Part shown: positions 6,552-63,257 of the stretch, piece after piece | How positions within the stretch are numbered: position 1 is the stretch's first letter | Layout of the letters: the number at the start of each line of letters is the position of its first letter | DNA from: Escherichia phage HansTraber_Bas100 | Sequence record: PQ850605.1 | Length of the DNA stretch: 64,000 nucleotides | Strand: one strand, 5' to 3' | Program-made: the position numbers and the translations under genes | Notes under the pieces: generated by a model | Told to the model about the DNA's origin: nothing | Database searches by the model: none | What the model saw: the letters and a program-made list of their open reading frames with translations, nothing else

Positions 6552-6580
6552 ATTCATCGGCAAAGGATTGCCGCGAGTTT

Positions 6581-6860
6581 TATACGTATAATGACGTATC
6601 ATACGTATCAAGTAAGTTATTGTTTTCAAAAGAATCTTACGGATGATACGGATGATACGCGTTGCCGCCGTACTATATAGGAATTCAAATAAATTAATTT
6701 AAAATTATATATCTAATTTAATTTTATTTTTTTTATAAACTCTTATATATGAAAAGTATCCGTATCATCCGTATCATCCGTAGCACACCAGTGATAGCGC
6801 GGCTTATACACCGATACGGATAAAAATACGCCTCATTTTATCCGTATCATCCGTATCACA
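6581..6860. repeat. iteron-like inverted repeats flanking an AT-rich core (element R1)
   Basis: CTTACGGATGATACGGATGATACG at about 6636-6659 and its reverse complement at about 6756-6783, further ACGTATCA / GATACGGATA copies, about 80-bp AT-rich core with TATATAGGAATTC. Confidence 0.65.
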
Positions 6861-6967
6861 CTAATAAAGGCGCGGCTATATCGGTTGTTATACATATTCA
6901 AACCATAATTATTGTTTGCCTAAGTTTTTTTCATTAGATATAATACACAATACTTATTTGAGGGTGG

Positions 6968-8389
6968 ATGCGAATGCAAACGGCACGCGAAATTGACAAA
7001 AATGGATTCTTGACGATTATGGGTTGTCCAATTTCGTCATTTGGCATTTTTGATTATTCTGCTGGTCAAGTTGGTCTTGATGGTGATCCGAATCGCATCG
7101 TAAAAGTCTATCGCCCTGAGTCAGCGGTGAAAGACCCCGAAGCGATAGATTCATTCAAAAATATCCCTTTCATCGACAATCACGAAATGCTTTCTGGATT
7201 TGAAGGTGATGAGGATAACACAGCACCCGAAGAGTATGGAGTTGATGGCGTTCTGACTGGCAATGTTTATTATGACAAGCCATGGATGCGCGGCGACCTT
7301 AAAGTGTTCAGCCGTCGTCTGAAGAAGGCCATTGATTCTGGAAAGGTTGACTTGTCTTTGGGCTATGACTGTGAATTCATCATACAGTCTGGAGAGTTTG
7401 ACGGGCAGCCGTATGAAGTGGTGCAGACAACTCTTCGCGGCAACCACATTGCTCTCGTGGACGTTGGTCGAGTACCAGGTGCACGGGTGCTGGATGGTCG
7501 TTGCTTTGACCATCTTTGTTTGACGACTGTAACACCATCCAACGAGGATTTAGACATGCCAAAACCGTTAAAAGGTAAAGCGCGTGATAATGCTGTTGAA
7601 CAGCTGAAATCACTGATCCCTGCGCTCGAACAATTTCTGAACGAAGAGAGTACTGAAGCTGCTCATCAGGATGAAGTTGAAGTGAAAGCAGAAGAGAAGG
7701 ACTCAACCGAAAATCGTGAAGAAGTAATGGTTGATCCAGAAGTCAAGGCAGAAGCAGAAGAAACCCCAGAAGGTGAAGAGAAGTTTGAAGTTGAAACTGA
7801 ATCTCACGCTGGCGGCGAACTTCCGCAATTGATCAGCCAAATCGAAGCACTTATTGCAAAACTGAAAGGTGGCGCGGTAGGTGATGAAGAAGAAGTTGAA
7901 GCCGAAGTCAAAGACGAAGAAGAAGTTGAAGTCAAGGCTGAAGATGTATCACCTTGCGACAAAGCTGAAGATGTGGTTAGCGGCCTGCAAAACAGCAACG
8001 TAAAGGGGGCTTCGGTCGAAAAAGATGACAAACCGACAAAAGCGGCGAAAGCGTCGCCAGGTCCAGCAAAAGGGGAACACTCAATGGCATCTGATTCAGC
8101 AGTTGCTGCTTTCTACGCTGATTCTGCTCGTAAGAATAGCCTCTACCAGCGCCTGTCTAAAGTTGTTGGTGCCTTTGATCATGCAACTATGGACTCCAAG
8201 TCCGTAGCGAAATATGGCGCTAAAAAGTTAGGCTTGAAGTGCGTTGATGGGGCTGAGTTTGACGTGGTGGATAATTATCTGCGCGGCGTTGAGCACGGTC
8301 AAAAACAGCGTGTAGTCGCAAAACAAAAGGCCGCTGCGGATTCTGCAGCAACTGACGAAGCATTTGAAGCTTGGTTGAAAGGGGAATAA
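6968..8389 (+). CDS. scaffold/prohead-like protein with acidic E/V/K-rich C-terminal half
   Basis: position between head-fibre gene and capsid gene; low-complexity acidic repeats (EEEVEAEVKDEEEVEVKAED); start may be ATG 6974. Confidence 0.5.
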   Translation: MRMQTAREIDKNGFLTIMGCPISSFGIFDYSAGQVGLDGDPNRIVKVYRPESAVKDPEAIDSFKNIPFIDNHEMLSGFEGDEDNTAPEEYGVDGVLTGNVYYDKPWMRGDLKVFSRRLKKAIDSGKVDLSLGYDCEFIIQSGEFDGQPYEVVQTTLRGNHIALVDVGRVPGARVLDGRCFDHLCLTTVTPSNEDLDMPKPLKGKARDNAVEQLKSLIPALEQFLNEESTEAAHQDEVEVKAEEKDSTENREEVMVDPEVKAEAEETPEGEEKFEVETESHAGGELPQLISQIEALIAKLKGGAVGDEEEVEAEVKDEEEVEVKAEDVSPCDKAEDVVSGLQNSNVKGASVEKDDKPTKAAKASPGPAKGEHSMASDSAVAAFYADSARKNSLYQRLSKVVGAFDHATMDSKSVAKYGAKKLGLKCVDGAEFDVVDNYLRGVEHGQKQRVVAKQKAAADSAATDEAFEAWLKGE

Positions 8390-46272: not shown

Positions 46273-47355
46273 ATGGCTAGTTTAAGAGAAGAAGCAAAAA
46301 TAATCGAAGAGTTTTTAACAGAACTCCAAAGAGGCATTCCAGAAGATGAGCGCGTCATGACGGTGTTTGCGCCTGAAGCAACGGTGCAGACTGACGAGCG
46401 CGGCAAGAAGATTAACAGCAGCTTCTGGCCTAAGCCTTGGAAGTTGGGCAAGCCGCTCATGCAGCACCAAAACGGCTATGCCTGCATCAGTTCAATGCGT
46501 AAGTCTCCCAACCCGAAGACGGGTGAGATGCGATACTGGCGTACAGAGTCAGCCTTTGGTCACGGTATGGCGATGATGGTCGACGACATCGGTCACGGTA
46601 AAGGGTCCAAAGGCGATTTAGATTTGGAATTCTTTTTCGAGCGACTGAAGCCGACTGTCATTGTCGAGACGTCACCGAACAACCACCAGCTGTGGTACTT
46701 CTTTAAAGAACCAATTGACCATCTTATTCAGTTCAAAGCATTCCTTGGGTCTTTCGTAAACATGGTACTCAAGAAGGGCGGCGACAACACGATTAAAGAC
46801 GTAACGCGCGTGGGCCGTGTTCCTGGGTGCATCAACAACAAGCGCGTGACTCACGACGGCCCCTATAAATATGTCGATGAGAACGGCGACCCGTTCCGCT
46901 GCCGACTTGTCCATGCAGATTACTCCTTGCGCTACACCATCGAAGACATTTGTCAGGCATTCGGCTTTCACGTTGTAATGCCGCAAAAGCGTGAGATTCA
47001 AATTGACGTCGATGAATACAAATACGATGCTGTTTGGTATAAGATAGCCCAGCAGATTCTAGCGCGCAACAAGATGGGTGAAGGGTCTGATGGCGACGTT
47101 ATCGAGAATATGTCAGGTAAGTGTCGCATAATCTGTCCTTGGGGTGAAGAGCACACCAACGGCGACCCGTATGGCGCTTACTTTCGCGGCCCTATTCCTG
47201 GTGCAGAACATGAATTTGTGTTCGGTTGCGCCCACGACTGTCACCGGAAAGGGGAAGGCAAGAAAGGTTGGACCGCTTTTGTTGAAGCAATCGTCATGCC
47301 TTATATTGAGAATCAACTTGACATGATAAATCGTCGTGCAGGTGGCATAAAATAG
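46273..47355 (+). CDS. primase-like replication protein with C-terminal Cys/His zinc-binding motif
   Basis: 360-aa first gene of rightward operon; MVDDIGHG acidic motif; CPWGEEH ... CAHDCH cluster. Confidence 0.4.
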   Translation: MASLREEAKIIEEFLTELQRGIPEDERVMTVFAPEATVQTDERGKKINSSFWPKPWKLGKPLMQHQNGYACISSMRKSPNPKTGEMRYWRTESAFGHGMAMMVDDIGHGKGSKGDLDLEFFFERLKPTVIVETSPNNHQLWYFFKEPIDHLIQFKAFLGSFVNMVLKKGGDNTIKDVTRVGRVPGCINNKRVTHDGPYKYVDENGDPFRCRLVHADYSLRYTIEDICQAFGFHVVMPQKREIQIDVDEYKYDAVWYKIAQQILARNKMGEGSDGDVIENMSGKCRIICPWGEEHTNGDPYGAYFRGPIPGAEHEFVFGCAHDCHRKGEGKKGWTAFVEAIVMPYIENQLDMINRRAGGIK

Positions 47356-48665: not shown

Positions 48666-50336
48666 ATGTCAATTAATAACGACAATCTTCCAGAGGATAC
48701 AGGTGATGAATTTGGTGCAATCTTTGACGAAATTCAAGATGCAGGCGTTTCGGAAGAAATGCAGGCAGCAGAGCAGCAAGGCACCAGAGCTAAAATCAGC
48801 CTTCAACATAAAGCCGTTGAAAAAGATTCAGAGCGCATGGAATGCTACGGTGAAGAAGACTTGGTTGAAAGAGCACGCTTGCTCGCCTCACTTCAGGTAA
48901 TCAAGTTCCCTCACTACAAGCCGACCAAAGATGACTTCGTTCTACAGGCAGACCGGACGAGTGACATGAACCGTTATGCGGTTTTCGACGCGTTGTTTGA
49001 TAAGGGAAGTGGCGTTGTTCCATTCCCTCACAAAGATACCTTTCGTGGGCGCTTAGTCGACCATCGCGGCGAAACATTCACCGACCGTACTTTGGAAGTC
49101 ACAGAGATAGTTGCCGCTGTCGACGCAGCAGGATTGTCCAACCCAAACTCACGTCAGGTCGCTCAATCCTATAAGGAATGGGCCATGCGTTATCAGCGCG
49201 ACGACCTGATGGACTTCTTCTACAAGAAGCTGCCTGAATGGGACGGTACTGCGCGCATCGAGAAATACCTTATCGAGCTATTCCGACCGTTCGATACAGA
49301 GTTAAACCGACAAATCGGTGTGTATTTTTGGCTATCGCTCTACAACCGCCTGACCAACCCTGGCTGTCAAGCGCCAATCTCCATTGCGCTCATCGGCGGC
49401 CAGAACGCAGGGAAGAGTTATTTTAGCAAGCTGCTTTGCGAAGCTATTATGAACGACCGCCACGCAACACCGATTCCGTTGAACTTAGCCGCGCAGAACT
49501 TCAACCCGTTCTTGCGAGCTATTACGGGTCGCTCAATTATCGCGAACGTCGGCGAGATGACAGGCTTTAAAAAGGCCGACATCGAAAACATGAAAGCATT
49601 CCTGACTAAGACGGAAGATGACCTGGACTTCAAATTTGAAGATACGCAGGTTAAACCACGCCAGTGGATTGCTATCATGGACGGCAACGAATACGCAGGC
49701 ATGCAGCGTGATGACACGGGCAACCGTCGTGTGTATCCTATCTTTGTTGGCCAACTCGCTGACAAGGACGGGCAACCGAACTGGTCGAAAGACTTCCAAG
49801 CTGACCTTTCCACTTTGAAAGAAGATGTTTGGCAATTGATGGCTGAGTGCGCTGCTTGGATGGAGAAGCACGGCGAAGCAGGCTACAACGCGTTTGTTGG
49901 TGAAACATCTCGCATGCTTACTGAGTTCAGTAAAAACGAAATGGAACGTGCGCGCGGCGTTATCCGTGATGAGATGGTTGACAATGACCTTGTTGAAGTC
50001 GTCATCACCGCGCCTTATGACCGACATCACAGCGGACGCTGGCACATCACCAGTGGTGCTATTGCTATGGGATTCAGAGCGAAGTGTGGCAAGTCGCCTT
50101 TCTCTCGTACCCTTGCGCCGCACATGTCGAAGCTTGGTTTTGAGCCTGCAACCTATCGCAACCAGCGCGGTTACTTTACGCCGCTGATTAAGAATGAAGC
50201 AGGGGAATACATTTCTGACTTGATGACCATCTTAGCGTATCTTATCCGTGATGAGTCTGACCCTGAAGATATTGAATTCTTGAAGAAGGTTATCGAGCGT
50301 AAACGTTCTTTGGGAAGAGATAAGGATGAATTCTGA
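48666..50336 (+). CDS. SF3-type helicase / primase C-terminal domain protein
   Basis: Walker A IGGQNAGKSYF; 556 aa; follows primase-like gene. Confidence 0.6.
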   Translation: MSINNDNLPEDTGDEFGAIFDEIQDAGVSEEMQAAEQQGTRAKISLQHKAVEKDSERMECYGEEDLVERARLLASLQVIKFPHYKPTKDDFVLQADRTSDMNRYAVFDALFDKGSGVVPFPHKDTFRGRLVDHRGETFTDRTLEVTEIVAAVDAAGLSNPNSRQVAQSYKEWAMRYQRDDLMDFFYKKLPEWDGTARIEKYLIELFRPFDTELNRQIGVYFWLSLYNRLTNPGCQAPISIALIGGQNAGKSYFSKLLCEAIMNDRHATPIPLNLAAQNFNPFLRAITGRSIIANVGEMTGFKKADIENMKAFLTKTEDDLDFKFEDTQVKPRQWIAIMDGNEYAGMQRDDTGNRRVYPIFVGQLADKDGQPNWSKDFQADLSTLKEDVWQLMAECAAWMEKHGEAGYNAFVGETSRMLTEFSKNEMERARGVIRDEMVDNDLVEVVITAPYDRHHSGRWHITSGAIAMGFRAKCGKSPFSRTLAPHMSKLGFEPATYRNQRGYFTPLIKNEAGEYISDLMTILAYLIRDESDPEDIEFLKKVIERKRSLGRDKDEF

Positions 50337-53687: not shown

Positions 53688-53771
53688 ATATCAAAAGGTG
53701 AGCTAAATGCTTGCCTTTTCTTTTATCAATACTTATACTCTTTTCATCAAGACGAACAAGTGAGGTGAATT

Positions 53772-54941: not shown

Positions 54942-55019
54942 TTCAAAAAGGTGAGCTAAGTGCTTGCCTTTTTATTTGCCTGTATTATACTTAGTTCATC
55001 AAGCAAAGGAGAGGTGATT

Positions 55020-57595: not shown

Positions 57596-58021
57596 ATGAT
57601 ACAACGTTACGACCTGACATATGATGTGGTATCAGAAGATTGCGCCATCACTCCCGTTCCAGAGAGTCATGAAGGACGTTTTGTTGCATATGAGGACTAT
57701 GAATCATTGCTCAAACTTAATGAGTCGCTAACAAAAGAGATCGAGCAATACCGCGAGCGCATCAAAGCCGCTGAAGATGTTATCAAGCTTTTTAGCGAGG
57801 CTGTTGATAAATACAAGGAGTGCAACGTACCGATTAAGGAGGAAGCGTGGACCGTGTGGCTTGGCGGCGATAATCCGGTGCCTGGCGAGATTGTTGAATA
57901 CAAGCTGCGCAATGGAGGTGATAAAGTACTGTCGAGACTTTCTGACTATCTTCACTGGGGTCATATAGGAGCACTCAAAGGCAGCGACATCATTGCTTAT
58001 CGGGTTGTTAAGGAGGGGTGA
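57596..58021 (+). CDS. hypothetical protein with the same C-terminal module as 56080-56589
   Basis: WTVWLGGDNPVPGEIVEYKLRNG ... YRVVKEG aligns with WIDWDGGDLNPVPGKKVLYMLRDG ... YKVVEE. Confidence 0.55.
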   Translation: MIQRYDLTYDVVSEDCAITPVPESHEGRFVAYEDYESLLKLNESLTKEIEQYRERIKAAEDVIKLFSEAVDKYKECNVPIKEEAWTVWLGGDNPVPGEIVEYKLRNGGDKVLSRLSDYLHWGHIGALKGSDIIAYRVVKEG

Positions 58022-58554
58022 TGGGTAACGATGCAGGATGGGGCAAGCCGCGATACTCAAAACTTGCCCACTACTTTGACGACGGCGAGCAAATCAGCTT
58101 GTGCGGTAAATTCAGCAAAGGCAATACAGAGTTGACCGATGCTCAAGAAATGGAATCAAGTTTGACAATTGGTGATTGCTCTAAGTGCAGAAAGGCATTA
58201 TATGAGTTATTAACTCTAAGGGGATTGAAAGCGGCAAAATCAAGGGATGAATGGGTCATTAACGTCTGTGAAGGGAATCCAGAATTAATGGATGAATTGC
58301 TGAAAACAGATGCCGTAAATGCAATTTTCAAAAGGCATTATAAAACTTGTATGCGTTACAAGATGAATGATGATATTATTTTTATGGTATTATCTTATTC
58401 AAGGAGCACAATGGACGTCAAAAAGCTTCGACAATATCGCCACAAGGTCATGTGTGAATTGCGCCGTTTAGGAGTTATTGTGGATAATAATGTCATTAAA
58501 ACGGAATTGAAGAAGCGTGATAAAAGGAATGGTGACTGGAAGGTCAGCGGATAA
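58021..58554 (+). CDS. hypothetical Cys-containing protein (177 aa)
   Basis: ATG 58021 with AGGAGG RBS; last gene of rightward block. Confidence 0.5.
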   Translation: MGNDAGWGKPRYSKLAHYFDDGEQISLCGKFSKGNTELTDAQEMESSLTIGDCSKCRKALYELLTLRGLKAAKSRDEWVINVCEGNPELMDELLKTDAVNAIFKRHYKTCMRYKMNDDIIFMVLSYSRSTMDVKKLRQYRHKVMCELRRLGVIVDNNVIKTELKKRDKRNGDWKVSG

Positions 58555-58842
58555 ATAAACACTGTTTACGTGTTTTGAAGAATGGAATGTGTGCAATTGG
58601 TCGCTTTATGCGGCCTTTTGTCGTTTGGGTCGTGTTTTGCGATGGAATGATTATGAGGTTGTGTTTTATTTATTGATTGTGCGGAAATATTTAGAAATAT
58701 ATATAAACAGGATTGTTAATATTTTAATAGTGTATGGCTATTGGTCCGTGGTGTTTGTTAGATTATATCTATGGATTGAAATTTTAGTGTCGTGAAACGT
58801 GGTTTTGAACACATTTGATACGCCTAAAATACGGTTAAAAAT

Positions 58843-59175
58843 TAAGCGTATCATGGCTGCAGGCCGCGCCGTTGCTGGATTCCTATTTTCAAAAGTGGTA
58901 CACCCTTACGTCATGATACGTCATGGTTTTCTATCCGTAAGAGTGTACAGCCCTTGCCGCGCCTGGCTTGTACATTAATCTTACGGATGATACGGATAAA
59001 ACTGAGCATCGTTATATATAGAATTCGAAAAATTAATTAACTCCATTTTAAAAACATTTATATTAATTTTTTTCATATCCTCATACTTATGTTAATTTAT
59101 ATATTTAACGTATCATCCGTAAGATATAAGTAAAAACAAAGACTTGCGGCAATACGGATGATACGTCATGATACG
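58843..59175. repeat. iteron-like inverted repeats flanking an AT-rich core (element R2, homologous to R1)
   Basis: ATCTTACGGATGATACGGAT (about 58978-58997) and reverse-complement ACGTATCATCCGTAAGAT (about 59108-59125), outer copies, core with TATATATAGAATTC. Confidence 0.65.
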
Positions 59176-59403
59176 CTTCAACCAGCCAGCAGCGGCTAAG
59201 TCATTGATTTGCATAACAAGCGGCGAAAGGGATGGATTTCTTTTATACGTATCAAACAGTACACCACGCACCACGGTCCGCTATTCATTCAGCACTATGA
59301 TTTATGTACTTTTACAGCCAATCTGAACATCAATCTGCACTTGAATATAATGTTCATTCATTGTATAATTCACACTATTAATTTGCACTATGGGATTTGC
59401 ACT

Positions 59404-59877
59404 ATGAGTCAAGATTATGTAGCAATGCCTGAAGACTTTGAAGACCCGCGATTTGCAGAGCATAATCAGGCATTATTCGATGAGTTCATTGACCTTGTTA
59501 TTCAGGGCCATGACATGCGCGCAGCTTTTGCACTAGTATTTGGCATGGAGGTTGCGACCGATAACTACACTGGCCAGCGAATCCTCTGCACGCAACGCAA
59601 TCCGTACTACAAGATGCGCTACAAAAAGCGTATGGAAGAGATGCCATTGAAGGAATTGTGGAGCGTAAAGAGTTCCATCCACAATTTAGTGAAGCTTGTG
59701 CGTGATCCAGAAGTCGCGGCGTCAGCCAAGCTTAATGCCATTCGTGAACTGAATATCATCTACGGCATCACGATGATTGATGAAAATGGCAATAGTAAAA
59801 TGGGCCGTTCCATGGACGATTTCTACAAGGATTTTGGAGAGGCAGCCAAAGAGGGTGAGCAATTCTCCCGCCACTAG
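59404..59877 (+). CDS. terminase small subunit-like DNA-binding protein (tentative)
   Basis: FDEFIDLVIQGHDMRAAFALVFG resembles HTH region of small terminases; weak RBS; ATG overlaps a copy of the 11-mer. Confidence 0.4.
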   Translation: MSQDYVAMPEDFEDPRFAEHNQALFDEFIDLVIQGHDMRAAFALVFGMEVATDNYTGQRILCTQRNPYYKMRYKKRMEEMPLKELWSVKSSIHNLVKLVRDPEVAASAKLNAIRELNIIYGITMIDENGNSKMGRSMDDFYKDFGEAAKEGEQFSRH

Positions 59878-59894
59878 CCAATTTGCACTATAAA

Positions 59895-59932
59895 ATGGCC
59901 CTAGAACACATTTTCTCCACTTCTAGGGCCAT
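59895..59932 (+). promoter_or_regulatory. perfect 12-bp-stem hairpin after terS-like gene
   Basis: ATGGCCCTAGAA - 14-nt loop - TTCTAGGGCCAT; no U-tract. Confidence 0.45.
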
Positions 59933-60305
59933 CGGTAATACGACGGGGAAGGTTACAACCATAAACGCGTTAGAAAGTGTATTATTATAAGTCATCTTTT
60001 AGTCACTTTACGTAACAATTTACGACCTTCCGCCGTCCAGTCGAACGACTCCACCAGCAGATTTGCACTATAACCTAAGACGATGCGTCCCTTCTCGTTA
60101 TCGACCCGCCAACAAGTCTCGAATAGCATTCGATTTGCACTATTAACTATCGCCGCGACGCGCGTTGGGTAAGCGCAATTTGCACTATGGTCATAAAGGG
60201 ATAAGGTGCGACCGCTTCCGATGGACAACGTAGCGATAAGAATAAGCGTATTCATAAGCCACCAATTTGCACTATGAAAAGCGACCCCGAAGGGCCGCCA
60301 TTCGA

Positions 60306-60932
60306 TTAGATAATCTGGAATGTGTAGGACTTGTTGCCGAACTCGAAGTTCAAGCGTCCAGCTTCCTTAAGCTTCATGCGGAAGCGAATGTGCTTGCTAT
60401 CCGGTAATCCCAGCGCGGCGAACGCTACGCGGACCGATTTGAACTCGCCTACACCCTCGACCATGACACCGTTACGGGTGAGACGCTTTTGCGCCACTTC
60501 CTTATTATCCCAGCTTTTTGCAATACCTTCGCTATTCGAACGGCGATGGGAAGGAGTTCCATTTTGCACTACGCAATTTGCACTATCGTTTAAACCGCTC
60601 TTAACGAAGGCTTCATACTCTTCGTCGGTCATCGCGTCGAGTTCTTCCTGGGTCGGCTCGGCCTTTTTAACGACCGCACGCGCCTTATGCGTTTTTACAT
60701 CGCTGGGCACTTCCTCGCGCGACTTCGCGTCTGGGATGGGCGACTCGTTGGACGGCTCATCGAGCGCGTTTAAGGACTCGATTAACGCTATTACGCGAGT
60801 CTCGGCGGTCCGGCGGTCCGCAAATTTTTTGATCGGCTTCGAACCGGAATTTGCATTGTAAAATGCAACGAGGTCGGCGGTCTTAGTTGCGATAACGTCG
60901 CCGCTAGTCGAGAAACGATTTAAGCTAACCAT
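60306..60932 (-). CDS. hypothetical protein (208 aa)
   Basis: AGGAG RBS; coding region contains tandem copies of the 11-mer (reverse strand) encoding SANCVVQN. Confidence 0.55.
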   Translation of the reverse strand: MVSLNRFSTSGDVIATKTADLVAFYNANSGSKPIKKFADRRTAETRVIALIESLNALDEPSNESPIPDAKSREEVPSDVKTHKARAVVKKAEPTQEELDAMTDEEYEAFVKSGLNDSANCVVQNGTPSHRRSNSEGIAKSWDNKEVAQKRLTRNGVMVEGVGEFKSVRVAFAALGLPDSKHIRFRMKLKEAGRLNFEFGNKSYTFQII

Positions 60933-61012
60933 AATGAACTCCTATTTGTTAGGGCGCTAGGCGCGAAAGAATTTTATTAAAGCGCCGCGCACGACGCTCT
61001 AAAAATCCTCTC

Positions 61013-61297
61013 TTACGCTTCGACGAGGGAGAAGGTCTCAAATTCTTCTTCGCCCATAACGAGTAAGATGTTACCGATTTCGACCGCTTCGAAGAAGTAT
61101 CCGTTAACGTTTACTTCGAAGGCTTCGCGGTCCGATTCCGGTAACGCCGCGTAAAGTTTAAAAGCCTCGGCGACCGTTACCCCACCCGCCTCGATAGTTT
61201 GGTCTACGTTCGCGGCGTAGACTTCGGATAAAATTTGTTTTACGCCGTAGTTCTCGACGATAGCGTTACGAATAGAAGAAACGTTAAGAATAGCCAT
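61013..61297 (-). CDS. small acidic protein, paralog A (94 aa)
   Basis: AGGAG RBS 6 nt upstream; promoter and leader homologous to those of paralog C in inverted orientation. Confidence 0.55.
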   Translation of the reverse strand: MAILNVSSIRNAIVENYGVKQILSEVYAANVDQTIEAGGVTVAEAFKLYAALPESDREAFEVNVNGYFFEAVEIGNILLVMGEEEFETFSLVEA

Positions 61298-61321
61298 TTT
61301 AAACTCCTAGTTGGGAGAGGC

Positions 61322-61342
61322 GTTAACGACCTATTCGTTAAC
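61322..61342 (-). promoter_or_regulatory. 5' leader hairpin of paralog A
   Basis: GTTAACGA-loop-TCGTTAAC; same position as hairpin in paralog C leader with two compensatory base-pair changes. Confidence 0.5.
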
Positions 61343-61365
61343 TCATCCCGTCCCGATATGAGTAC

Positions 61366-61393
61366 ATTATAATATAGTGTAGAAAAAAGTAAA
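61366..61393 (-). promoter_or_regulatory. promoter of paralog A (TTTACT-16 bp-TATAAT)
   Basis: hexamers on - strand; spacer contains CTACACT. Confidence 0.45.
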
Positions 61394-61437
61394 GCACTTT
61401 TTCGATAAAAATGAGATAAATTATTTTATCTTTTTTC

Positions 61438-61465
61438 TTTACTTCTTCGTACACTCGCGTATACT
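61438..61465 (+). promoter_or_regulatory. promoter of paralog B (TTTACT-16 bp-TATACT)
   Basis: conserved spacer TCTTCGTACACT shared with paralog C promoter. Confidence 0.45.
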
Positions 61466-61521
61466 TGTTTATATCGAGACGGGCGATGGCCCTTCCTTCT
61501 ACTAGCATCGGGAGTTTTATT

Positions 61522-61824
61522 ATGACTACTTTAATCTCTTCTATCCTTACTTACGACGAAGACCGTTTAACCGTTCGTTCTCTTATCGCCGCCGTTAACG
61601 CGGAACTAGAATCCACCATCATTAAGGTCCGCGCGGTCGCTTTCGTCGGGCTTTCCTTCGACGATATGAAATACGCCGAACGTAGCGCCATCCGCTTCGC
61701 GAAGACCGACGACGAAGCCGTTACCCTTATCGAGACGGTTACGCCTCACGGCGAAGCGTTAATTATCGTCGAGTATATCGACGTAGAAGGCGATAAAGCT
61801 TATAAACATTTTATCGCAAAATAA
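61522..61824 (+). CDS. small acidic protein, divergent paralog B (100 aa)
   Basis: ATG 61522 with GGGAG RBS; track start 61465 overlaps the -10 and is rejected. Confidence 0.5.
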   Translation: MTTLISSILTYDEDRLTVRSLIAAVNAELESTIIKVRAVAFVGLSFDDMKYAERSAIRFAKTDDEAVTLIETVTPHGEALIIVEYIDVEGDKAYKHFIAK

Positions 61825-61834
61825 CGAAAAGTGC

Positions 61835-61863
61835 TTTACTTCTTCGTACACTAAGACTATAAT
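61835..61863 (+). promoter_or_regulatory. promoter of paralog C (TTTACT-17 bp-TATAAT)
   Basis: hexamers plus conserved spacer TCTTCGTACACT. Confidence 0.5.
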
Positions 61864-61885
61864 GTTTTATATCGAGAGGGGATGA

Positions 61886-61906
61886 GGTAGCGAATAGGTC
61901 GCTACC
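61886..61906 (+). promoter_or_regulatory. 5' leader hairpin of paralog C
   Basis: GGTAGCGA-atagg-TCGCTACC perfect 8-bp stem about 25 nt upstream of ATG. Confidence 0.5.
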
Positions 61907-61930
61907 CGCCCGACCAACTAGGAGATTATT

Positions 61931-62221
61931 ATGATTACTTTAGCCGCTATCCGTTCCGCTCGCGTCGAGACTTCCGAAAACTCTAACGTATTTGGCGAGA
62001 CTTTAGAGAGCGTTTATCTCTCTAACGTCGACGCGACTATCGAGTCTATTTATGAGCCGATCAACTTCCTCGACCTTTACAAGTATCGCGACGAGGACAT
62101 CGTATCGTCCCGCGTAACGATCAACGGCTTCGTTTATACGATTACCGAAATCGGCGGCGAATATATCGCGGTCCCGCAACTCGGCGGCGAAGTAACTTAT
62201 TTTAAAATCGTCTCCTTATAA
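61931..62221 (+). CDS. small acidic protein, paralog C (96 aa)
   Basis: AGGAG RBS; shares IR.A.VE, VY..NVD.TIE and NG(F/Y)..EIG motifs with paralog A. Confidence 0.55.
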   Translation: MITLAAIRSARVETSENSNVFGETLESVYLSNVDATIESIYEPINFLDLYKYRDEDIVSSRVTINGFVYTITEIGGEYIAVPQLGGEVTYFKIVSL

Positions 62222-62241
62222 TACCCTTCCGTTACTAATAG

Positions 62242-62266
62242 GCCGCGCTTAGTCGCGGCTTTTCTT
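62242..62266 (+). terminator. intrinsic terminator after paralog C
   Basis: GCCGCG-cttagt-CGCGGC stem followed by TTTTCTT. Confidence 0.5.
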
Positions 62267-62385
62267 CGTCCCTATCTCGTTGCGCTCCTACGCGAAAACT
62301 CCTTTATCCTTCCCTTCGTCGTCGCATAATCTTCGTCGGTATGCGCCTTAGTTCGCATAACAGGTATTACGTTAAATGGAGAACA

Positions 62386-62459
62386 TCGCGTAAGTCCTTG
62401 TTTTATATAGACACCTATATCGGACCGTTAGGGCGGGTCGCGTAAGTCGTTGTTTTATA
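62386..62459 (+). repeat. two direct copies of a 22-bp repeat, 52-bp period
   Basis: TCGCGTAAGTCCTTGTTTTATA at 62386 and TCGCGTAAGTCGTTGTTTTATA at 62438. Confidence 0.6.
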
Positions 62460-62690
62460 AAGGCGCAAAACTTTCCCTTCGTTCCGAACTAAAACGAGAA
62501 ATATGCGGACCCTTCGCTCGAAAATAGTACGCATGCGAAATTACCGACATCTAGAATAATCCCCATCGATATTATCCTACGCGCAACCATTCGCTTTCGA
62601 ATTGTAACGCTGGAAACTGTAACGGCGATTGATTATTGCGTTCGTGTGGTTTTTAGGGCATGGGTCTTTTGGTGCGTTTTGCTACTTGAT

Positions 62691-62804
62691 GGAATTTGCA
62701 GTACACTAATCAAAATACGACACATTTGGTCCACTAACTTTTCAAAGAAAAAGTCCTAGACAGTACCGTACTATTTTGTATCCACAGGAAATTTGCAGTA
62801 CACT
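62691..62804 (+). repeat. two copies of GGAA(A)TTTGCAGTACACT
   Basis: copies at about 62691 and 62787; shares ATTTGCA and CACT with the 11-mer and GTACACT with island promoter spacers. Confidence 0.55.
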
Positions 62805-62876
62805 CCTGCGCGCGGCAGGCAAAATAAAGGGCCGCACTAAGCGACCCACGATTCACGGTTAAATCAACAACACCCA

Positions 62877-63257
62877 CTATTCACTCTTATGGGCATCACC
62901 AAATCCATCAGCAATCTGGCTGATCAACGACTCAATGGACACAGTTTTACCAATTGATCGAGCGGTTATGGCGAGCATATTATCAATCAAACCGTGATTA
63001 ACACAATACTCTGGAGATTTAGAATCATCTTCAGAACAACCAAAAAGCTGGTCGCGCAGACTTTCAAGAGAACGCTCAATATTTTCCAACTTCTCTTCTA
63101 AATCGGATTGGCGACGTAAAACCCATGTCAAGTCACGGTTGCCAACTTCCAATCCATCAGAATAGCAAGGTGGAGCGTCAATTTTGATGCTGGAACCAAA
63201 AGCAGTGCCGCTGCCTTTAGTATAAGTATGGCTCATAGAATCATTTTTATTTGACAT
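62877..63257 (-). CDS. hypothetical protein (126 aa)
   Basis: ATG 63257 with AAAGG RBS preferred over track TTG 63323, which would run through a terminator hairpin. Confidence 0.5.
   Translation of the reverse strand: MSNKNDSMSHTYTKGSGTAFGSSIKIDAPPCYSDGLEVGNRDLTWVLRRQSDLEEKLENIERSLESLRDQLFGCSEDDSKSPEYCVNHGLIDNMLAITARSIGKTVSIESLISQIADGFGDAHKSE

Follow-up and report, generated by a model that had tools for sequence, protein, structure and literature searches.

We analysed 64,000 nucleotides of Escherichia phage HansTraber_Bas100 (PQ850605.1), a stretch referred to below as the window, which belongs to a Wifcevirus-type E. coli myovirus with 94-98% identity to F13, SP13, WFC and Bas98. According to the gene order read off the curated relative Bas98, the window begins with terL, followed by the portal and head genes, an element termed R1, and the head maturation protease, capsid and tail genes; further on, a plus-strand early block that includes a RepB-type primase and a VapE-type helicase leads into a second element, R2, behind which lies terS. 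Both elements carry short repeats (iterons) in inverted arms around an A+T-rich core. We find that R2 is very probably the site at which the left end of the virion DNA is formed, and that pairs of such elements occupy the same two sites in four genera. The first-pass annotation of this sequence had correctly placed R2 after the early block and before a terS-like gene, which is indeed a true TerS homologue, but it missed that the left genome end of the relatives lies at the centre of R2.

Architecture of R2 and its paralogue R1

The features of R2 are as follows, with positions numbered from the first base of the window; the slash in the cut motif marks the cut.

58843-59175, no strand: R2, with iteron arms, A+T-rich core and outer iteron copies
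58817 (plus), 58847 (minus) and 59248: further GATACG sites
58909-58926, plus: outer iteron variant CGTCATGATACGTCATGG, with a 10-bp period
58944-58974: hairpin-forming palindrome TGTACAGCC-N12-GGCTTGTACA, just left of the left arm
58977-59001, plus: left inner arm AATCTTACGGATGATACGGATAAAA, which holds about 1.5 iteron units (9 bp each)
58978-58997: left-arm string ATCTTACGGATGATACGGAT
59002-59107: A+T-rich core, 82% A+T versus 54% for the window
59013 onwards: core string TATATATAGAATTC
59035-59049, plus: cut motif AATTAACTCC/ATTTT
59044/59045: homologue of the left physical genome end, that is, the first base of the direct terminal repeat (DTR) of WFC, Ro157lw, SP13 (+1 A) and Mansfield
59108-59125, minus: right inner arm ACGTATCATCCGTAAGAT, which repeats the left arm in inverted orientation
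59152-59175, plus: outer iterons ATACGGATGATACGTCATGATACG
59241-59256: palindrome TTTTATACGTATCAAA, holding one more iteron site

The repeated unit is an iteron of 9 bp, which reads TACGGATGA or, in a different register, GATGATACG. All R2 strings quoted in the first-pass annotation are present at their positions, including the inner palindrome and the two outer partial copies, and the reverse complement of the right inner arm agrees with the left arm at 17 of 18 positions, as had been claimed; a repeat search delimits the arms as 58968-58994 and 59109-59135 (27 nt, 85% complementary). The core holds boxes that recur across genera, namely TATATAG (59015-59021), AAAATTAATTAAC, and a T-run followed by CATATCCTC.

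The paralogous copy upstream of the head-protease operon has the following parts.

~6585-6877: R1
6585-6609: left outer sites
6633-6659: left arm
6660-6757: core, 82% A+T
6758-6782: right arm

In R1, the inverted arms are perfect over 22 nt (6638-6659 and 6761-6782) and hold two iterons each, so that plus-strand iterons at 6645 and 6654 and minus-strand iterons at 6761 and 6770 flank the core; the corresponding layout of R2 is plus at 58989 (in addition to 58915), core, and minus at 59109. On its right side, R1 has a duplicated 38-nt unit (iterons plus ...GCGCGGCT; 6767-6804 and 6840-6877, 73 bp apart, 84% identity), which supplies extra outer iterons that have no counterpart in R2. The 13-mer TACGGATGATACG has 12 matches with at most two mismatches in the window versus 0.81 expected, and all eight of its exact copies fall into R1 (five) or R2 (three). 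Likewise, 17 of the 36 GATACG sites of the window lie inside the two elements, taken as ~450 bp each. When the iterons are masked, the two cores still align collinearly, with a score of 40 versus a shuffle mean of 27.3 +/- 4.9 (35 of 2000 shuffles reach 40), a similarity that is modest but real. Iteron counts, arms and masked cores therefore bear out the homology of R1 and R2 that the first-pass annotation had proposed, and the similarity persists once the short repeats are masked, since the iteron-masked cores are still collinear. The spacing of 52 kb that it gave is correct within the window; the other way round the ~68.7-kb unit genome, the two elements are ~16 kb apart. Single-strand DNA folding of R1 and R2 returned only the pairing of the two arms (z = -6.8 and -4.1), which follows from the inverted repeat itself and is no sign of a hairpin with a specific function.

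The left genome end within R2

Base 1 of the linear WFC record (72,472 bp) corresponds to position 59045 of the window, and this record carries an exact direct terminal repeat of 3,784 bp; the repeats of Ro157lw and SP13 (3,533 and 3,899 bp) are equally exact, with 0 mismatches. The left junction ...AATTAACTCC/ATTTT... is common to WFC, Ro157lw, SP13 (with one extra A) and Mansfield, and the Mansfield record, annotated 'direct terminal repeat predicted by PhageTerm', starts at the same base. Between the R2 arms, of which the left one ends at 58994 and the right one begins at 59109, this base is almost central; terS follows 360 bp downstream. The ends of WFC were called from reads that 'ended abruptly' (PMC6563267) and those of Mansfield by PhageTerm (PMC6753283), so that independent laboratories and methods agree on a left end at the equivalent of 59045. 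An artefact of A+T richness is an unlikely explanation, because the equally A+T-rich R1 has never been called as an end; none of the relatives' records that we checked starts at R1. Since the junction in the window is identical to that of WFC over +/-70 nt, we assign the end to HansTraber_Bas100 by inference, and its terminal repeat would by homology span 59045-62669 (~3.6 kb). Mansfield (PhageTerm), Ro157lw and SP13 agree on 62669/62670 as the right end of the repeat, whereas the WFC record has it 81 bp away, at 62750; a BLAST search found no R-like element at the right end. The terminal repeat as such is already known, from the Mansfield annotation and from reports on WFC and WFH. In the literature, our coverage of which was incomplete, we found no description of an iteron/A+T module across the end, of a paralogue upstream of the protease gene, or of their conservation in a Pbunavirus-like supergroup.

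The two copies vary differently among Wifcevirus genomes. A comparison of six phages gives 97.3-99.6% identity for the arms and core of R1, versus 88-96% for the gene upstream of it; R1 is thus as conserved as the downstream protease gene, and it is the better conserved copy. R2 is 88-100% conserved to the right of the cut, that is, inside the repeat, and the DNA to the left of its left arm occurs in three unrelated versions, all of which retain ACGGATGATACGGAT ~50 bp left of the cut. The hairpin-forming palindrome at 58944-58974 is limited to the left-flank version shared by the window, WFC, SP13 and Ro157lw. In the version of Mansfield, FEC19 and ECML-117, the left arm reads CATCTTACGGATGATACGGATGATACGCGTCGCCGC and is R1-like, which suggests exchange between R1 and R2. 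The cut motif is invariant in all nine Wifcevirus copies of R2, is also found in the more distant contig L050, and is absent from R1. As a separate observation, the region 58555-58976 and its homologues in Mansfield, ECML-117, FEC19 and Bas98 form a three-version mosaic that breaks at the left iteron arm, although the phages are ~90-98% identical elsewhere; recombination seems to be frequent at the genome end, which would make it a hot spot.

The genes and signals around the two elements are the following.

1-1428: terL, at the start of the window (by Bas98)
6558-6573: terminator-like hairpin upstream of R1
6916-6944: sigma-70-type promoter TTGCCT-17-TATAAT, downstream of R1
6967-8388: head maturation protease, downstream of R1
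28.5-46.5 kb, minus: replication genes
46273-47355: RepB-type primase (RepB_primase match 4.5e-36)
48666-50336, plus: VapE/D5-type SF3 helicase with a C-terminal winged-helix-like domain, candidate iteron-binding initiator
58599-58615, plus: terminator-like hairpin closing the early block, upstream of R2
59341-59369, plus: sigma-70-type promoter TTGAAT-17-TATAAT, between R2 and terS
59404-59877, plus: TerS (small terminase), first gene inside the terminal repeat

R1 and R2 thus each follow a terminator-like hairpin and precede a sigma-70-type promoter close to consensus. A search against PDB sequences identifies the product of 59404-59877 as a homologue of the E217 TerS (7UXE, E=9e-33), and the Mansfield annotators likewise name the counterpart gene TerS; Table 1 of PMC9611059 gives 7UXE as the decameric E217 TerS. 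Pfam and PHROGs returned no informative family for TerS and its neighbour proteins, and an Rfam scan of 58000-63200 at E<=1 returned no RNA family.

Several further observations concern the DNA on either side of the end. Just upstream of R2, 58445-58745 is strongly G+T-rich (up to 0.74), largely non-coding and G-skewed on the top strand (GC skew up to +0.76); an R-loop-prone or Rho-related sequence is among the possibilities, and similar GT-rich DNA is found before the R2-type elements of MTx, Ab27, L051 and L052 (described below), with CA-rich DNA on the other side. Within the early block, AAAAGGTGAGCTAAATGCTTGCCTTTTCTTTT occurs in two 91%-identical copies (53693-53724 and 54946-54977) that resemble repeated terminator-type hairpins. 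Inside the DTR, the top strand has an exact Chi sequence, CCACCAGC, at 60051 and one-mismatch octamers at 59179, 59186 and 59871. This post hoc cluster is oriented and lies only on the right, inside-DTR side of the cut, with 0 sites of opposite orientation within +/-1.5 kb; nothing comparable surrounds R1, and in MTx CCACCAGC also occurs ~180 bp inside the left end. We take the orientation of the Chi and Chi-like sites at 59179-60058 to be the one recognisable by RecBCD entering at the left end. Four plus-strand motifs of ~23 nt ending in ATTTGCACTAT(A/G)A (59385-59407, 59871-59893, 60051-60073 and 60566-60588) may be a regulatory motif of the DTR genes, and related AATCTGCACT repeats are found at 59319-59342. 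Around small divergent ORFs, the DTR further contains a 27-nt inverted repeat (61375-61401 and 61827-61853, 89% complementary) and a 24-nt direct repeat (61460-61483 and 61858-61881). The right-end region, 62222-62876, comprises ~650 bp of non-coding DNA with a direct repeat, CGCGTAAGTC(C/G)TTGTTTTATA, at ~62389 and ~62440, and with repeated CCCTTCG and TTTGCAGTACAC motifs.

Paired elements in other genera and candidate iteron-binding proteins

Pairs of elements at these two sites, the DTR/terS junction and the region upstream of the head protease gene, are found in four genera, each with genus-specific iterons. Serratia phage MTx (Myosmarvirus) has the same synteny and a PhageTerm DTR of 3,566 bp; the long blocks ACTTTTCGAAAAATGCAAACGTAAA, TTTCAAATCTCGGTAGCTATAAGGAA and AGTAACCCA.TATAGA occur both at its left DTR junction and in the gap of 356 bp that precedes its head protease gene, its iteron is ACTTTTCG, and its PhageTerm end lies ~20 nt right of CTATAAGGAA, compared with 23 nt between TATATAG and the cut in the window. 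In Pseudomonas phage Ab27 (Pbunavirus), the junction and a 650-bp gap upstream of the protease gene align over 306 bp (67.6% identity, E=7e-22), and inverted arms, CCTACTGCCGCGAGGCTT and AAGCCTCGCGGCAGTAGG, surround an A+T-rich core within which the record starts. The terS-upstream region of Pantoea phage PA1 (Kylevirus) has exactly one genomic paralogue, located 250-430 bp upstream of the protease gene, and 10 of the 13 genomic copies of its iteron TAACCGTT are within this pair. Among metagenomic contigs, L050 (helicase 75% and TerS 64% identical) has GATACG-type iterons and the exact cut motif, and the more divergent L051 (54% and 49%) has TCTTGCGGATA, one substitution from the Wifcevirus arm TCTTACGGAT; the iterons thus drift stepwise, from TCTTACGGAT to TCTTGCGGAT. 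In the enterobacterial genera, the core boxes follow a fixed order, TATA(T)AGG, then GAAAATAAATTA, then a T-run with A(A/T)CCC or TCCTC, and a G+C-rich hexamer flanks the arms as a mirror image, reading TGCCGC to their left and GCGGCA to their right without exception (20 of 20 copies). Arms that are genus-specific around a core that is partly shared fit a fast-evolving specificity protein working with more conserved machinery. For Pbunavirus, published views of the termini conflict, with defined ends on one side and headful, permuted genomes on the other (PMC12390725; PMC12345254); these reports would be reconciled if the R2-type site were the preferred place of the first cut and headful packaging proceeded from there.

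The iterons are quite likely sites for a dedicated, putative phage protein, for which the window encodes two candidates. That this protein is the Rep-like helicase, and that the modules are origins, has in our judgement roughly equal chances of being right and wrong. The helicase matches the Pfam family VapE-like (PF05272) at 1.6e-28 and has a profile match to 7PDS at 6.5e-23. In its AlphaFold (AF2) model (pLDDT 84, pTM 0.75), the C-terminus is predicted to form an H-beta-H-H-beta-hairpin unit (residues 436-504). The best Foldseek match of this model is 7PDS ('PriRep1 with dsDNA', the SaPI1 Rep; E=5e-16 over ~480 columns), followed by NrS-1, poxvirus D5/E5 and SaPI5 primase-helicases, so that the helicase, as modelled, is a full-length structural homologue of SaPI1 Rep. 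Its C-terminal 150 residues are the fastest-evolving part (32-44% identity in L051, versus 70-76% for the ATPase core). The helicase gene lies directly upstream of the R2-type element in MTx, Ab27, L051 (with one ORF between), L052 and L053. The last two are integrase-bearing chromosomal islands, of Caballeronia (L052; JALQDQ010000018.1, 3503-8859) and Cupriavidus (L053; PJRP01000009.1, 6001-13443), in which a VapE-type helicase gene is followed by a ~650-bp gap with inverted iterons of 9-bp period (CTGTAACTC; CCTTAAGTG with 29-nt arms that are 97% complementary). They also encode a TerS homologue (E=2e-17 and 3e-31), and may be phage satellites (PICI-like) that use the helicase-iteron-terS module. 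In L050 and L051, and with the chromosomal helicase homologues of L052 and L053, the helicase and TerS both co-occur and co-diverge with the iterons.

Origin, packaging site and other readings of the pair

We favour the reading that R1 and R2 are two origin-type modules and that R2 is additionally the left-end cutting site, to which we give about an even chance of being correct; it is favoured because the layout is SaPI-like and the phage encodes a SaPI-Rep-like helicase. The SaPI origin consists of 6-12 short iterons around an AT-rich centre, with at least two iterons per side in opposite orientation; it lies just downstream of rep, is read by a winged helix in the C-terminal domain of Rep, and has a primase gene upstream (PMC9371898). 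Similarly, the iterons of R1 and R2 stand on both sides of an AT-rich centre, two or more per side, in opposite directions, the phage encodes a self-loading SF3 helicase with a C-terminus modelled as winged-helix-like, with a primase gene upstream, and in MTx, Ab27, L051, L052 and L053 the element is found just downstream of the helicase gene. However, the carrier here is a virulent myovirus with two copies and 9-mer iterons instead of the 5-6-mers of SaPIs, one copy coincides with the virion DNA end, the helicase gene of the window is 8.5 kb away, and origin activity is a prediction.

Under this reading, the module would be a replication origin of the SaPI/PICI Rep-iteron type. The self-loading SF3 helicase (48666-50336) would read the iterons by its C-terminal winged-helix domain, load on either side and melt the A+T core, and the terminase would cut the centre of the R2 core at AACTCC/ATTTT, where the virion DNA and its ~3.6-kb DTR would begin. 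R1, because it is without AACTCC/ATTTT, would stay uncut and act as an internal origin. The identity of the iteron binder, the firing of either copy as an origin and a mechanistic coupling of origin and cutting are thus inferred. With regard to such a coupling, a local duplication of the repeat is needed, because an exact 3.6-kb repeat is present at both ends and the concatemer holds one repeat per junction. An origin at the left repeat boundary that fires rightwards would duplicate the 3.6-kb repeat in the concatemer, and a stationary fork or melted bubble at the A+T core of R2 would be the structure that the terminase cuts. We consider this replication-coupled end formation rather unlikely. 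If true, it would account for a terminus placed with base precision in the middle of an unwinding element, for the lack of sequence-specific DNA binding by TerS, for a right end without an R-like site, and for the conserved trio of helicase, iterons and terS.

Several points weigh against the helicase and origin interpretation. Both origin activity and iteron binding by the helicase in these phages are predictions from sequence, and the winged-helix likeness of its C-terminal domain comes from a predicted model and a global Foldseek alignment, with no domain-level match. A virion end within an element is the classical hallmark of a pac/cos site rather than of an origin; moreover, the position of the terminus comes from relatives that share the junction sequence and are 94-97% identical to the window in this region. 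The helicase gene is 6-8.5 kb from the R2-type element in the window and PA1; in the window, 8.5 kb separate its end at 50336 from the beginning of R2 at ~58843, so that, unlike in SaPIs, the element is not just downstream of the rep-like gene, and the position of R1 is unrelated to it. In contrast, terS adjoins the R2-type element, 230-640 bp downstream of it, in all nine genomes and islands examined, and the adjacency argument therefore favours TerS at least as much. Nor do the islands separate the two candidates, since L052 and L053 carry both genes.

Accordingly, the strongest rival is a pure packaging site, in which TerS would bind the iterons of either arm and bend the A+T core between them, and TerL would then make its cut at the centre; we regard it as possible, if on balance doubtful. 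R1 could then be an uncleaved TerS-binding paralogue that titrates or regulates TerS at the head-gene operon, or that synapses with R2 as proposed for T4 gp16. The mapping of the left end inside R2 (in four relatives with an identical junction, and in MTx), the invariable adjacency of a gene for a true TerS homologue (7UXE), the retention of the cut motif in R2 alone, and the resemblance of repeats around a central cut to known pac sites all speak for a packaging site. It gives, however, no reason for a second complete copy, core included, that is maintained in four genera and better conserved than R2, and the right DTR end has no such element. Furthermore, E217 TerS is reported to show no appreciable DNA binding in vitro, on a DNA substrate that is not stated there (PMC9611059), which we count in favour of origins.

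Transcriptional control, with the iterons as operators of a phage regulator for terS and the protease-scaffold-capsid operons and with an incidental genome end, is improbable. In its favour, each copy has a terminator-like hairpin on one side and a strong sigma-70-type promoter on the other, oriented alike with respect to the downstream late genes, and in all enterobacterial genera the left arm is followed by a TATA(T)AGG box. However, the iterons are 60-350 bp upstream of the promoters, no activator should be needed because these promoters are near-consensus, and both the base-precise terminus in the core and the mirror symmetry of the flanking hexamers (20 of 20) would be left unexplained. 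We also examined the TATATAGGAATTC box as a general phage promoter and rejected it, its only exact copy being in R1 and its matches with at most three mismatches numbering 15 versus 15.9 expected. A mobile element (MITE-like or a homing insertion) that has transposed to two copies, as the first-pass annotation had suggested alongside a dedicated trans-acting binding protein or paired origins, would account for terminal inverted repeats, two copies per genome and the three-way mosaic left of R2. This idea is not borne out and is very improbable, as four genera have sequences at the same two positions that cannot be aligned with one another, searches of 5,426 complete E. coli genomes and 72,556 plasmids returned no copy, the 16-mer clusters in IMG/VR are confined to Wifcevirus contigs, and there is no transposase gene nearby; in contrast, its other two suggestions are now better supported by the pairs at the same sites in four genera, each with its own iteron, the SaPI-type layout and the SaPI-Rep-like helicase. 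Chance likeness of low-complexity, A+T-rich intergenic DNA has a practically negligible probability: the cores are 82% A+T and modestly similar when compared by themselves, but the iteron statistics, the perfect 22-nt inverted arms of R1 and the conservation across isolates and genera contradict it. A protelomerase target (telRL-type) was rejected as well, since the inversion is confined to the arms and leaves out the core, which is no palindrome; in addition, the genome ends carry direct repeats, and no protelomerase is annotated in Bas98.

Other phage systems combine some of these features. The origin modules of T7 (the primary origin, phiOL and phiOR) are phage-RNA-polymerase promoters followed by AT-rich DNA, and its terminal repeat is 160 bp; Chung and Hinkle (1990; cited in PMC13236587) are said to have found that plasmid packaging by T7 needs a T7 origin plus a concatemer junction. 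T7 and the relatives studied here share an exact DTR with sequence-specific ends, and in both an internal origin is, or would be, accompanied by an AT-rich origin-like module at the repeat edge. However, iterons stand here in place of phage promoters, the repeat is ~3.6 kb versus 160 bp, and the annotation of the relative Bas98 contains no phage RNA polymerase. The pac sites of P1 and SPP1, which are single sites of headful packaging, are clusters of short repeats around a terminase-cut centre beside the small-terminase gene; R2 likewise has repeats around a central cut beside terS, but is associated with exact ends, a long DTR and a second, uncut copy. In P4, ori and crr are separated elements, 4.5 kb apart, with the same iteron, recognised by one primase-helicase initiator via its C-terminal DNA-binding domain, and crr is a repeat block without an AT-rich unwinding core of its own. 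R1 and R2 are also two separated elements with a common iteron, but both are complete modules, 16 kb or 52 kb apart. Finally, T4 gp16 (TerS) has pac-like sites in genes 16 and 19, for which a synapsis model exists; this TerS binds DNA weakly in vitro, similar to what is described for E217 TerS, and the ends are not sequence-specific. Two homologous sites and one proposed small terminase are the common ground, whereas the T4 sites lie in coding sequence and are without the iteron/AT-core architecture.

The group of phages with such pairs includes therapeutic Pbunavirus phages and very fast-replicating Wifcevirus phages, and R1 and R2 offer it a conserved candidate of ~300 bp for both packaging signal and replication origin, with R2 and R1 as natural cut and uncut variants for comparison. 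For genome rebooting and engineering, the pair shows which non-coding DNA to keep intact and where the true ends are. The proposed mechanism also gives a testable model for the generation of long exact terminal repeats. If it is true, headful Pbunavirus relatives would use the same site as pac, which would reconcile 'defined ends' with a 'permuted genome', and the integrase-bearing islands with the trio would be satellites exploiting the system. Taken together, our results suggest a previously undescribed link between origin-type DNA and genome-end formation in these phages.

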